Assembly (NCBI GenBank): GCA_965284645.1
Contig: OZ260106.1
Coordinates: 2,815,747-2,879,746, forward strand
DNA: 64,000 bases
Direction: 5' to 3'
From: an uncultured Bacteroidia bacterium
Lineage (GTDB): Bacteria > Bacteroidota > Bacteroidia > JAIBAJ01
The position numbers were made by a program, and so were the translations under genes. The notes under the pieces are model-generated. The model did not search any database, was not told where the DNA came from, and was given only the letters and a program-made list of their open reading frames with translations. Position 1 is the first letter of the stretch. The number at the start of each line of letters is the position of its first letter. Shown in pieces: positions 6,433 to 9,998 of this stretch.

Positions 6433-7002
6433 ATGCAAGACTTTATTGACCAAGCAAATAAAAATGGTGTAACACTTCTCGACAAAGGAAGGTGTCAATT
6501 TTGTGGTGCAGACTATCAAAAGGGCATTTTTGAATGTATGGACAATTATAACCATGGACTTCAATTTTTGGACTTTGTTAATCCAGAACATCAAATTTCA
6601 AGGTTTTTAAGCGTAGATGCTCATGCTTTACAACACCCAGAAATTCACGGACGGTGGAGCAATCATTTTCATTTAACAAGACTGAACATAATTCTTGACA
6701 AAAACCAAACTTGGGACTACAAAAAATCACCAATACTCAGTGACTATTTGAACGCATACAAACTAAATAGACCGAATGAGTTTCTTTCCATCCCGAAACC
6801 ATTAGAAAGAGGAAAAATAACAGCAAAAGAGTTGATTAAGGCGACATCAGCAGACGAATGTGTTGCACTAATAAAAAACTGGGCGGACGAAGTATATCAT
6901 TCATGGAGTTCAAGTTATTCAATAGTTTCTCAAATTGCAGACGGTTTTTTAGACAACATTTACAATGGAAAAACACATGACAGTAAAACAACGAACCGCT
7001 AA
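6433..7002 (+). CDS. Hypothetical protein (Cys-rich N-terminus, CxxC...C, no recognised family)
   Basis: 189-aa ORF in the AT-rich islet. GRCQFCGADYQKGIFEC suggests a small metal-binding knuckle. No family recognised from sequence. Confidence 0.45.
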   Translation: MQDFIDQANKNGVTLLDKGRCQFCGADYQKGIFECMDNYNHGLQFLDFVNPEHQISRFLSVDAHALQHPEIHGRWSNHFHLTRLNIILDKNQTWDYKKSPILSDYLNAYKLNRPNEFLSIPKPLERGKITAKELIKATSADECVALIKNWADEVYHSWSSSYSIVSQIADGFLDNIYNGKTHDSKTTNR

Positions 7003-7133: not shown

Positions 7134-7523
7134 CTATTTGCTTTTCAATTTTTGTTTATTTAATTTATAATCGACACCCCACTTTGCCATAGTTTGTATA
7201 ACTGGCGACAAAGTAAGACCAAACTCCGTTAGGTTATATTCTACTTTGGGTGGTATTTCTGCATAAATTTTTCTACTAATAATTCCATCATCTTCTAATT
7301 CTCTTAACTGTTGTGTAAGCATAGATTGAGTGATGCCCACTACACTGCGTTTCAATTCACCAAACCTTGCAGGGGCTGTATGGTAGATTGCGTTGATAAG
7401 AATAGGCTTCCATTTTCCACCTAAAACCTTCATCGTTGCAGTTACTGGACAATTATTCTCATCAAAAATAAAAGTTTTTTTAGTTTCAATTAACTGATTA
7501 TCAATATTAGTATTTTTATTCAT
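7134..7523 (-). CDS. HxlR-family winged-helix transcriptional regulator
   Basis: Canonical HxlR core CPVTATMKVLGGKWKPILINAIYHTAPARFGELKRSVVGITQSMLTQQLRELEDDGIISRKIY. Divergent from a YciI-like gene. Confidence 0.85.
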   Translation of the reverse strand: MNKNTNIDNQLIETKKTFIFDENNCPVTATMKVLGGKWKPILINAIYHTAPARFGELKRSVVGITQSMLTQQLRELEDDGIISRKIYAEIPPKVEYNLTEFGLTLSPVIQTMAKWGVDYKLNKQKLKSK

Positions 7524-7617: not shown

Positions 7618-7959
7618 ATGGAAAAATTCATTCTTATTTTTAGAGGTGGTAATACGCATATTTCCACTGCTAATTCACAAGCCGCAATGGACATAATTAA
7701 AACTTGGGACAATTGGATGCAAGGACTTGCCGAAAAAGGAATTCTTGCTGGAGGCGATGCTCTGCAAGTATCAGGCAAGAATGTGAAAAGTTCAAAAAAA
7801 GTAGTTTCAGATGGTCCATATGCTGACGGAAATGAAATGGTTGGTGGCTACTTAATAGTAAATGCAAAAAACATTGAAGCAGCTGTTGAAATTTCAAAAG
7901 GTTGTCCGATTTTAAGTGAAGAAGGAAGCGTTGAAGTTCGCCCAATTCAATTAAGATAA
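7618..7959 (+). CDS. YciI-like (DGPF domain) small protein
   Basis: 113 aa. ...GGYLIVNAKNIEAAVEISKGCPIL...VEVRPI matches the YCII-related fold family. Classic divergent partner of HxlR regulators. Confidence 0.75.
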   Translation: MEKFILIFRGGNTHISTANSQAAMDIIKTWDNWMQGLAEKGILAGGDALQVSGKNVKSSKKVVSDGPYADGNEMVGGYLIVNAKNIEAAVEISKGCPILSEEGSVEVRPIQLR

Positions 7960-8011: not shown

Positions 8012-8055
8012 ACCATCTTTTTCGCAATAAAGCGAGAAAGATGGTAGTTTTTTTT
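8012..8055 (+). terminator. Rho-independent terminator after YciI-like gene
   Basis: ACCATCTTT ... AAAGATGGT 9-bp stem, 16-nt loop, followed by AGTTTTTTTT. Confidence 0.6.
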
Positions 8056-8253
8056 ACACCAATTCAAAAAAGCAATCTTGGCAAGCTAATAACAAGCCAA
8101 CGCTTCAAGACAATTCCAAACCTTGGACAATTTGACCTAAAATACTAAACGTTAGCACCTAGCATAGACTCCGGTTTGGGCGATTTGTACATTTGAGTTG
8201 TCACAAATTTCCACAAGAAAGGTGAAAGATGGTTGTTGAAAATAGTTTCTCTT

Positions 8254-8341
8254 TTTGCGACAGGATGTTGTAAGAAGAGCACTATTATTGTTACAGTCAA
8301 ACAGAATATTTGTCGCAAATATTTACTAATTTTGCGACAAA
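8254..8341 (+). promoter_or_regulatory. Operator/promoter region of the abiEi-abiEii operon: perfect 11-bp inverted repeat plus an extra upstream half-site
   Basis: Perfect 11-bp inverted repeat TTTGTCGCAAA (8309-8319) / TTTGCGACAAA (8331-8341) with an 11-bp spacer. Third half-site TTTGCGACA at 8254-8262. The palindrome overlaps a TAATTTTG (TAnnTTTG) -7-like element at 8327-8334, about 26 bp upstream of the TTG start. Confidence 0.55.
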
Positions 8342-8359
8342 ATTTAAAAAGTCATAACC

Positions 8360-8968
8360 TTGCAAAGTATTGAAAAGCAAATAGAAAAGGTCATTAAAAG
8401 CAAACCAAGAGGTTCATTGGTGTTACCTGCTGATTTTTTGCTCTATGGAACATCAAAGGCTGTTCAAAAATCATTAGAACGCTTGGAAGAAAAGCAAGTG
8501 ATTGTTCGAGTAGCGCATGGTATTTATGTACGTCCAAAAATAAGTAAGCTAATTGGGCCACTTACCCCCTCAGCGGAAGAAGTTGCGGAGGCTATTGCCA
8601 AGCGAGACAGGATACGCACTGTACCTACAGGTAGTTATGCTTTGAATGCATTAGGGTTGAGTACTCAAGTGCCGATGAATATTGTGCTACTTACTGATGG
8701 TTCACCTCGAGAAATAAAAGTAGGCAAACGAACCATAAAATTTAAGAAAACCACACCTAAAAACCTGTTGGCAAAAGGCAAAATAAGTCGCTTGGTAATT
8801 CAAGCCCTTAAAGAGATAGGCAATGGGAAAGTAACAGAAGATGAAGAAATAAAAATATTGGATATACTTAAAAAGGAAAACGAAAAAAAACTAAAAAACG
8901 ACATTGCTCTTACACCTGTGTGGATTCAAAAAATAATGAATAAAGCATTGATCATTGGCAAAGATTGA
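8360..8968 (+). CDS. AbiEi-family type IV toxin-antitoxin antitoxin / transcriptional regulator
   Basis: TTG start. About 200 aa with an N-terminal winged-HTH-like segment (GSLVLPADFLLYGTSKAVQKSLERLEEKQVIVRVAHGIYV). Sits immediately upstream of, and overlapping, an AbiEii nucleotidyltransferase gene. Confidence 0.7.
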   Translation: MQSIEKQIEKVIKSKPRGSLVLPADFLLYGTSKAVQKSLERLEEKQVIVRVAHGIYVRPKISKLIGPLTPSAEEVAEAIAKRDRIRTVPTGSYALNALGLSTQVPMNIVLLTDGSPREIKVGKRTIKFKKTTPKNLLAKGKISRLVIQALKEIGNGKVTEDEEIKILDILKKENEKKLKNDIALTPVWIQKIMNKALIIGKD

Positions 8969-9998
8969 TTTTTACCAAATAGATAAGGCCGAAAAAGCAG
9001 CCATCTTTACAGAGATTGCTACCCAAAAGGGAATGAATCCTTTTGCAGTAGAGAAAGACTGGTGGGTAAGCCGAACCTTAGAAATTATCTTTCAAATGCC
9101 CATTGCAGAGCATTTAGTTTTTAAAGGCGGTACATCATTAAGTAAGGCGTGGAAACTCATCAATCGATTTTCAGAAGATATTGATTTAGCTATTGATAAG
9201 GAGTATTTTGGATTTAAGGGAGAGTTAGGAAAGAATCAAAGAGATAAACTCAGAAAAACAGCAGGTGCTTATACTACCGGAACTTTCTTTGAAGAGTTAA
9301 AGAAGAGCTTTGAAGGGAAAGGATTTAAGGATTTAAAATTTGTAGTGATTGAAGCCAAAGACAGCGACCAAGATCCAAGAGTATTAGAGATTTACTATCC
9401 CAACATCATCAAAGCGAAATCAGAATATCTCTTACCAAGAGTGCAGATTGAAGTTAGTTGCCGTTCTTTAAGAGAACCCTTTACTGCAAAGTCTTTTGGG
9501 GCATTGGTAGATGAATTTTATCCTGATAAAAATTTTGCTGAAAAGCTATTTGAAGTTCCAACCGTAAATGCAGAGCGTACATTTTTGGAAAAAATATTCT
9601 TGTTACATGAAGAATTTCAGCGTCCGATTGAAAAAATGCGAGTAGACAGATTAAGCCGCCATTTGTACGATGTTTATCAATTGGCAAAAGCAGGAATTGC
9701 TGAAAAAGCAATCAACGATAAAGAACTTTACGAAACCATTGTAGCACATAGATACAAATTTTCAAGAGTTGGCGAAGTGGATTATAACAAACATAACCCT
9801 AAAACAATAAATCCTATTCCCAAAGAAATAGTAATTGCAGATTGGGAAGAAGATTACACCAAAATGAAAGAAGCTATGATATACGGTGAGAACAAGCCAA
9901 GTTTTAAGGATTTGATAATCAATTTAATGGAATTAATTGAACAACTGCAAGTCGTTGAATGGCCTTTTCAACTTGAATTTCCTATTCCTAATTCTTAA
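8955..9998 (+). CDS. AbiEii/AbiGii-family nucleotidyltransferase toxin (DUF1814)
   Basis: Diagnostic motifs EKDWWVSRTLE ... LVFKGGTSLSKAWKLINRFSEDIDLAID (GS-x10-DxD nucleotidyltransferase). 14-bp overlap with the upstream antitoxin gene. Confidence 0.85.
   Translation: MAKIDFYQIDKAEKAAIFTEIATQKGMNPFAVEKDWWVSRTLEIIFQMPIAEHLVFKGGTSLSKAWKLINRFSEDIDLAIDKEYFGFKGELGKNQRDKLRKTAGAYTTGTFFEELKKSFEGKGFKDLKFVVIEAKDSDQDPRVLEIYYPNIIKAKSEYLLPRVQIEVSCRSLREPFTAKSFGALVDEFYPDKNFAEKLFEVPTVNAERTFLEKIFLLHEEFQRPIEKMRVDRLSRHLYDVYQLAKAGIAEKAINDKELYETIVAHRYKFSRVGEVDYNKHNPKTINPIPKEIVIADWEEDYTKMKEAMIYGENKPSFKDLIINLMELIEQLQVVEWPFQLEFPIPNS

Follow-up and report, generated by a model that had tools for sequence, protein, structure and literature searches.

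A predicted autoregulatory operator at the promoter of an abiE operon with a DUF6088-type antitoxin in an uncultured Bacteroidia bacterium

The DNA analysed here, below called the window, is a full 64-kb stretch from an uncultured Bacteroidia bacterium, and all coordinates count from its first letter. It carries a two-gene operon of the abiE toxin–antitoxin type, composed of a predicted abiEi-like antitoxin and repressor gene (8360–8968, + strand) and an abiEii toxin gene (8955–9998, + strand) that overlap by 14 nt. Ahead of the first gene lies a perfect palindrome, O1 (8309–8341, no strand assigned), which is very likely the main autoregulatory operator of the operon, as predicted from its placement, its conservation, and its co-variation with the antitoxin.

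The palindrome and the operon behind it

O1 is built from a left arm TTTGTCGCAAA (8309–8319, +), a spacer TATTTACTAAT (8320–8330), and a right arm TTTGCGACAAA (8331–8341, +), with a total length of 33 bp, an 11-11-11 arrangement, and arm centres 22 bp apart. It belongs to centre class “CG”, named after the bases in the middle of the arms (TGTCGCA / TGCGACA). An earlier note on this DNA had described a perfect inverted repeat before the abiEi TTG start, with 11-bp arms and an 11-bp spacer, and direct reading confirms the observation: the arms are 100% complementary over 11 bp in a repeat search of the window, without the 12th pair seen in most relatives, and 18 nt separate the end of O1 from the TTG start at 8360. 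The two strands of the 64 kb together contain three copies of the 9-mer TTTGCGACA, where 0.66 are expected, and all of them fall inside 8254–8339. The third copy, at 8254–8262, is oriented like the right arm of O1, and is located 46 nt ahead of the left arm and 77 bp, start to start, from the right arm.

The palindrome overlaps a predicted promoter of the Bacteroidetes sigma-A type, which is characterised by a −7 element TAnnTTTG and a −33 element TTG/TTTG. The box TAATTTTG (8327–8334, +) fits the −7 consensus and reaches into the right arm of O1, the TTTG of the arm being the TTTG of the box, and the overlap with a −7-like element proposed in the same note is thereby borne out. In Flavobacterium psychrophilum, the −7 box spans −12 to −5 (PMC9723704), and the median 5′ untranslated region (UTR) has 24 nt. 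Judged from the position of the box, transcription should start at 8339 (+), inside the right arm, which would give a 5′ UTR of ~21 nt; the distance to the start codon matches usual 5′ UTR lengths. Relative to the predicted start, the left arm spans approximately −30 to −20, and the right arm approximately −8 to +3. The upstream part of the promoter is less regular. The canonical spacing between the −33 and −7 elements is ~19 nt, but there is no TTG ~19 nt upstream of the −7 box, and the nearest TTTG, that of the left arm, lies just 14 nt ahead of it. The left-arm TTTG was rejected as a −33 element on this spacing, and because the gap is shorter than the canonical value, the palindrome is probably not simply a −33/−7 pair. 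A scan for sigma-70-type promoters gave nothing at the operator site, but such a scan is unsuited to the Bacteroidetes phylum.

Each O1 arm is itself a small palindrome, ATTTG-N3-CAAAT (8305–8323 and 8330–8343), which in the left arm is formed by AATATTTG (8305–8312) and CAAATATT (8316–8323) around TCG. The motif TTTG is thus found on both strands of each arm, which recalls the TTTG of sigma-A promoter elements.

As far as sequence matches can tell, the order and orientation of the two genes are those of an AbiE toxin–antitoxin operon. The toxin is a DUF1814 nucleotidyltransferase that matches Pfam AbiEii PF08843 (E = 3.7e-39) and the PADLOC AbiEii model (E = 1e-98). The antitoxin gene encodes 202 amino acids from a TTG start; homologues have ATG or GTG at the aligned position, and translation of the antitoxin is possibly weaker in this genome. 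The protein matches Pfam DUF6088 with E = 3e-83 and 278 bits (cut-off 25), residues 7–178 corresponding to model positions 1–172, and it matches the PADLOC AbiEi model PDLC02226 with E = 2e-70. The scores against the curated AbiEi models are below threshold for AbiEi_4 (16.4 bits, cut-off 25), AbiEi_3_N (15.6, cut-off 26), and NCBIfam NF047376 (27, cut-off 150). The DUF6088 family is large, with over 6,000 relatives found at E ≤ 1e-10, and is centred on Bacteroidota.

Two structure models were computed for the antitoxin. The first AlphaFold model, made with 33 close homologues, resolved only the N-terminal winged helix; the C-terminal domain failed, with a predicted local distance difference test (pLDDT) score of 61, and a fold search gave generic winged-helix matches. 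The second (AlphaFold2), made with a 75-sequence alignment after a renewed homologue search, reached a pLDDT of 91 and a predicted template modelling (TM) score of 0.78. It features helices at residues 4–14, 23–29, and 32–44 and strands at 49–57, giving an N-terminal domain of the H1-S-H2-H3-wing type, and the overall model has the two-domain AbiEi fold, a winged helix-turn-helix followed by a C-terminal domain, as in PDB codes 6Y8Q and 1ZEL. The top Foldseek matches are 6y8q_D and 6y8q_A, i.e., Streptococcus agalactiae AbiEi, with probability 1.00, TM scores of 0.40–0.51, and 13% identity, and 1zel, Mycobacterium tuberculosis Rv2827c, is ranked 9th and 12th. As the Foldseek E-values are weak (1e-3), the similarity is at the level of the fold only, and a sequence search of the PDB gave no match for the protein or for a shallow profile. 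The second model thus assigns an AbiEi fold to a protein that has the AbiEi gene context, though curated sequence models place it elsewhere. The label AbiEi given in the earlier note is therefore appropriate with respect to fold, PADLOC model, and toxin neighbour, but not with respect to the curated sequence models, according to which the protein is DUF6088. Helix H3 (residues 32–44; codons 8453–8491, +) is the predicted recognition helix, and its residues Lys33, Gln36, Lys37, and Glu40 constitute what is described below as the signature of the CG class.

Conservation of the palindrome and co-variation with helix H3

A genome scan identified 46 loci that encode relatives of the antitoxin with 47–86% identity, from Chitinophagales, Saprospiraceae, Flavobacteriales, Cytophagales, Bacteroidales, Sphingobacteriales, and other groups; the window brings the total to 47 loci. 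The same palindrome is present in 45 of the 47, in most cases beginning 50 or 51 nt ahead of the start codon, and the rest of the upstream intergenic DNA is unalignable among these loci. In the relatives, the consensus is TTTGT-xy-CAAAT, N9, ATTTG-y'x'-ACAAA, with a 12-9-12 geometry. The centre xy is CG in 6 loci (window included), CA in ~20, AA in ~17, and CC in one, and the second arm carries the exact complement of the centre in 44 of the 45 loci, the asymmetric exception being L029. A TAnnTTTG box occupies the same position in 42 of the 45 proximal sites, compared with only 2 of the 32 distal sites discussed in the next section. The abiE cassette and the operator have moved as a unit through many Bacteroidota families.

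A different palindrome, TTTGTCACCTTT-N9-AAAGGTGACAAA, is found in locus L043 (Pedobacter sp., 53% identity), in two copies 45 bp apart (2887–2965 of that locus) at the same upstream position. Compared with the consensus, the outer bases are retained and the inner bases are altered symmetrically.

The centre class of the arms co-varies with the residues of H3 in the adjoining protein. For 41 aligned proteins from loci of clear class, alignment columns were ranked by mutual information with the operator class, and the top columns are 40, 44, 37, and 33, with column 36 lower down. Position 36 is Arg in all 35 CA/AA loci and Gln or Gly in all 6 CG loci, position 37 is Leu or Ile in 17 of 17 AA loci and Lys or Gln in the 24 others, and Lys33 is exclusive to the CG class. 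The Fisher test for helix positions versus class gives p = 2e-7 and 7e-12, values that are uncorrected for phylogeny. On H3, which has a pLDDT of 82–96 in both models, residues 33, 36, 37, 40, and 44 cluster in an arc of 100 degrees. In a tree of residues 50–202, the classes are interleaved, with a nearest neighbour of the same class for 29 of 41 proteins, and L040, which encodes a 57% identical protein, has a CG operator and Lys33, Lys37, and Glu40 as in the window. The link between operator and helix is accordingly more than the result of shared ancestry.

An independent test was made with metagenome contigs that were scanned for the exact CG palindrome. The DUF6088 genes downstream of it encode 35 distinct helix variants, 33 of which are readable along the whole helix; Lys33 is found in 32 of these, Lys37 in all 33, and Glu40 in 32, while position 36 is Gln, Asn, Ser, Gly, or Ala in all 33, and never Arg. 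Among the remaining two variants, the partial L139 has Arg at position 36, and the other has no aligned residues. For a reading of the arms by the cis-encoded protein, an interaction that is predicted here from sequence, we consider the co-variation in these two data sets to be the strongest argument.

A palindrome may also act as a nucleic-acid hairpin, either as a stem-loop in read-through RNA or as a cruciform, and in this form serve as terminator, insulator, or stabiliser. The predicted RNA hairpin of O1 has an energy of −13.7 kcal/mol (z = −4.7), symmetric arm changes of the kind seen in the family would keep a stem too, the asymmetric proximal site in L029 would give a G-U pair, and some of the phage copies described below are located between co-directional genes. 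However, the −7 box of O1 is positioned in the loop and the right arm, and a transcript that starts at ~8339 would leave the left arm untranscribed. Only 3–4 of the 16 centre dinucleotides are used and the arm sequence is conserved, neither of which a stem requires. Moreover, the site is AT-rich and is not followed by the T run of an intrinsic terminator, an Rfam search gave only far sub-threshold matches, and a hairpin offers no account of the co-variation with protein residues. We therefore regard the hairpin as a highly improbable explanation of the palindrome, and favour an operator.

In six loci (L002, L023, L027, L031, L032, and L033), a CG palindrome followed by a 5′ remnant of abiEi of ~20–25 codons is present 140–275 nt upstream of abiEi. 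The remnant precedes an intact cassette of the CA or AA class, and the breakpoint is near codons 20–25. These remnants indicate that modules consisting of the promoter plus the N-terminus get replaced.

Distal palindromes and orphan sites

The earlier note regarded the TTTGCGACA copy at 8254–8262 as a third half-site that could mediate cooperativity. The copy is present, but it is not isolated. A repeat search shows that 8233–8262 is an 80% direct copy of 8310–8339, which makes the third half-site the right arm of a degenerate second palindrome. In the close relatives L047, L048, and L051–L053 (89–91% protein identity), four tandem palindromes are found upstream of abiEi (1330–1480 in L047), 35–45 bp apart and in the order CA, CG, AA, and promoter-proximal CG. 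The window intergenic region is colinear with this array, but one arm is lost in each distal site and the proximal site alone is intact. The distal sites of the window, none of which is assigned a strand, are best described by comparison with their counterparts. Site 2 (8266–8297, AA class) reads TTGTAAGAAG...TTGTTACA compared with TTGTAACAAAT-N-TTTTGTTACA in the relatives; its left arm carries substitutions, and the arm offset is 20 instead of 22 owing to a 2-bp deletion. Site 3 (8232–8264, CG class), which contains the intact right arm TTTGCGACA at 8254–8262, has a degraded left arm (GTTGTTGAAAA) and aligns with the intact TTGTCGCAAAT..TTTTGCGACA of L047, L051, L052, and L053. In site 4 (8195–8229, CA class), the left arm GTTGTCACAAA (8197–8207) is intact and the right arm is degraded (AGGTGAAAGA versus ATGTGACAGA in the relatives).

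From these alignments, the three distal palindromes look like relics, and the 9-mer at 8254–8262 would be the surviving arm of one of three decayed auxiliary sites that provides at most a weak extra site. As an alternative, the half-site may function as an auxiliary operator and act together with the main site by looping or cooperativity. Upstream auxiliary palindromes are common in the family, with 32 distal sites at spacings of 35, 41–46, or 77–79 bp, the 9-mer is a perfect cognate arm, and S. agalactiae AbiEi binds one monomer per arm (PMC7319586). Against this, all three distal palindromes of the window carry mutations in one arm, and one of them has the 2-bp deletion, where L047 and L051–L053 have intact sites, and the 77-bp spacing corresponds to 7.3 helical turns, which places the half-site off-phase with the main operator. 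An auxiliary role is accordingly unlikely, and cooperativity through the third site is doubtful in this genome. In the relatives, the non-cognate class of distal sites might reflect cross-talk between paralogues or graded affinity.

The relatives with arrays also differ from the window in genomic setting. In L047–L053 (89–91% AbiEi identity), the abiE pair is located in a bacteriophage exclusion (BREX) locus, between pglX, which encodes an Eco57I/MmeI-type methyltransferase, and pglZ. In the window, by contrast, the pair lies outside any BREX locus, between a YCII gene and trmD. The YCII gene ends in a terminator-like hairpin with a T run (8012–8054, +), where the regulatory intergenic region of 305 bp begins. 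The upstream neighbours are genes for a DUF5946 protein (6433–7002), an HxlR-type regulator (7134–7523, minus strand), and the YCII-domain protein (7618–7959), and the contig of the AbiEi relatives P0002 and P0003 (97–98% identity) likewise has an HxlR gene upstream.

The palindrome is not confined to abiE operons. Sites were collected from viral contigs in IMG/VR (L174–L265 and L267–L577) and from metagenome contigs (L054–L173), and many of these are single sites that are orphans with respect to DUF6088. The exact CG palindrome occurs in 129 locus groups, and only 35 of these have a DUF6088 gene directly downstream, most often 19 nt past the pattern. Among the IMG/VR loci with the exact CG palindrome, 86 of 92 have no adjoining DUF6088 gene despite room on both sides, one has such a gene, and five are too near a contig end for a decision. 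The genes preceded by orphan sites encode HNH endonucleases, integrases, chaperonin-like (GroEL-like) and RecA-like proteins, and hypothetical proteins, and a TAnnTTTG box overlaps an arm in 77 of 112 distinct orphan sites. In the viral contigs, the CA and AA classes of palindrome are no less common than CG. In an unbiased sample retrieved with the pattern TGTNNCAAAT-N10-TTTGNNACA, which comprises 90 distinct sites, the centres are almost only CA, AA, and CG, and 46 of the 90 are symmetric, compared with 1 in 16 by chance. Mixed AA/CA sites are frequent in this sample, and the asymmetric CG/CA pattern was found in 44 loci. A cultured phage, the Tenacibaculum jumbo phage pT24, has a CA-class palindrome (LC168164.1, 46053–46085; 3001–3033 of L266) with TAnnTTTG boxes on both strands, situated in a 250-bp gap between two hypothetical genes.

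The orphan sites were examined for other features that may explain them. Apart from L231 and L306, the fetched viral loci showed no DUF6088-like winged helix or similar recognition helix, and a shared neighbour gene family was not detected among 181 locus groups. Only a few sites, e.g., L219 and L180, are remnants of abiEi, and this origin was rejected for the orphan sites in general. A promoter class repeated within one phage was likewise rejected, as the first 50 kb of pT24 contain only one copy. The genes that flank the pT24 site give no clue to it, and a literature search with motif words returned unrelated primer sequences only. The proposal that the motif is special to this promoter thus survives within the window, where all three copies are found here, but it is not clean across public data.

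These observations bear directly on the identity of the protein that binds O1. Another regulator, encoded by a host or a phage, may bind the palindrome and have the abiE promoter as one of many mobile-element promoters under its control, and the low fraction of CG sites that adjoin DUF6088, the genes that follow the orphan sites, and the copy in pT24 are consistent with such a factor. However, the arm centre tracks the helix residues of the adjoining DUF6088 protein in two independent data sets, and DUF6088 is the only family recurrently linked to the motif. The next real gene family is found beside the CG palindrome in 6 of 129 groups at most, two larger clusters having the appearance of spurious antisense open reading frames. 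Furthermore, cassette and operator move together over many Bacteroidota families. Binding of another factor is thus possible but not favoured at the abiE promoter, and we consider it very unlikely that such a factor is the regulator for which O1 exists.

A broader interpretation is that the operator is a member of a portable family of promoter–operator palindromes, TGT[C/A][G/A]CAAAT-N9/10-ATTTG..ACA, which is common to abiE cassettes and phage orphan sites and has the same three centre classes in both, and that host DUF6088 antitoxins may bind the phage sites in trans. We regard this as speculative and rather improbable. If it applies, AbiEi would be more than a self-repressor and could silence phage promoters, or alternatively, phage DNA could titrate AbiEi off the operator and the toxin, thereby providing DNA-based sensing of infection. 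The mixed-class arrays in the BREX-embedded relatives would then be nodes of cross-talk between paralogous AbiE systems.

The proposed operator and known AbiE systems

In the reading that we favour, O1 would be bound by two copies of the DUF6088-type AbiEi, with each winged helix placing H3 into one arm. With arm centres 22 bp, or approximately two helical turns, apart, both proteins would reside on the same face of the DNA. The central CG bases of each arm are predicted to be read by Lys33, Gln36, Lys37, and Glu40. As the right arm contains the TTTG of the −7 box and extends over the predicted transcription start, with the left arm at approximately −30 to −20, an occupied operator would exclude RNA polymerase. 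This would keep transcription of abiEi–abiEii low, i.e., provide negative autoregulation. The suggestion in the earlier note of an autoregulatory operator read by the N-terminal winged helix gains comparative support from the 45 of 47 loci, the symmetric arms, the co-variation, and the −7 box in 42 of 45 proximal sites, and is revised with respect to gene family, third site, and exclusivity of the motif.

Several observations weigh against this reading. To begin with, no perfect inverted repeat in the window other than O1 reaches 11 bp with a gap of up to 20, but ~0.9 repeats of this kind are expected per 64 kb from first-order Markov simulations, and taken alone the palindrome is not statistically unusual. 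As the palindrome alone proves nothing, position and conservation must carry the argument, and what is beyond chance is the position of O1 on the promoter, the clustering of the three 9-mers, and the conservation in homologous loci. A chance origin in AT-rich intergenic DNA, for which the expected number of repeats speaks, is already refuted by 45 of the 47 loci, in which the palindrome is conserved and its position fixed; it is rejected only because of this conservation, and retains practically no probability. A second concern is that the operator and the H3 codons are only ~120 bp apart, and modular recombination or linkage may for this reason add to the co-variation. Furthermore, the auxiliary sites in the close relatives are of the CA and AA classes and not of the cognate CG class, which a model with one protein does not explain. 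Phage contigs also contain the palindrome family at hundreds of sites that lack a DUF6088 gene in the vicinity, and some other protein may therefore recognise it. Finally, almost nothing has been published on DUF6088, and the papers searched mention the family in passing only.

The regulatory principle is known for two AbiEi proteins, S. agalactiae AbiEi and M. tuberculosis Rv2827c, each of which represses its own promoter by way of promoter-overlapping inverted repeats (PMC3985639, PMC7319586). As for the window, the S. agalactiae system (Dy et al. 2014, PMC3985639; Beck et al. 2020, PMC7319586) is a bicistronic abiEi–abiEii operon, and both its operator (IR1/IR2 of PabiE, where IR denotes inverted repeat) and O1 lie within ~60 bp of the start codon, overlap the core promoter, and contain a perfect 11-bp core. 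In S. agalactiae this core is TGTTGCTTTTA-N27-TAAAAGCAACA, extended to a 23-3-23 arrangement; the outer bases of the half-site are similar, TGTTGC there and TGTCGC here. The geometries are clearly different, since the 23-bp arms with a 3-bp gap in S. agalactiae contrast with 11-11-11 in the window, which does not follow the 23-3-23 pattern. The S. agalactiae AbiEi is only 13% identical to the window protein and belongs to a different Pfam family, but is still its best structural match (6Y8Q). The promoter in S. agalactiae is of the −35/−10 type, and that of the window is of the Bacteroidetes −7 type. The three properties demonstrated for S. agalactiae, namely binding, cooperativity, and DNA bending, are predictions for the window operator. 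A 2026 preprint reports that in S. agalactiae, AbiEi binds to AbiEii and brings about auto-phosphorylation of this toxin, a finding that concerns toxin neutralisation and not the operator.

Rv2827c (Beck et al. 2020, PMC7319586) is an AbiEi-type antitoxin with several tandem inverted repeats, IR1–IR4, upstream of and over the promoter. These repeats differ in sequence and affinity, and relatives of the window locus likewise have up to four tandem palindromes. Rv2827c is larger, however, and its repeats are 23 bp long with gaps of 13 bp and 4 bp; in the window, only the proximal palindrome is intact. Distal sites of differing centre class, as in the window relatives, have no described counterpart in Rv2827c. 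The general logic, in which an antitoxin occludes its own promoter, is shared with the operators of type II antitoxins, but AbiE toxins are not known as co-repressors, and the antitoxin fold is different. Compared with these known systems, the features that differ here, as read from the sequence, are the protein family, the compact 11-11-11 geometry, the embedded −7 promoter, and the discrete centre classes with their predicted helix code.

For the window itself, the outcome is modest, and consists of an annotated promoter, a predicted operator, and a likely transcription start for one defence operon. The operator logic is ordinary, and the interest, which is moderate, comes from the apparent recognition code and the phage orphan sites. 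Autoregulation of AbiE by the antitoxin has been established for two proteins only, and the window locus would extend it, by prediction, to DUF6088. The apparent code is simple and absent from the model systems, with the helix residues at positions 33, 36, 37, and 40 mapping onto a CG, CA, or AA centre, and it makes operator specificity, cross-talk between paralogues, and swapping of cassettes directly testable. The orphan palindromes in phages raise the further question of whether antitoxins of this family, or another regulator of the same specificity, act on phage promoters.

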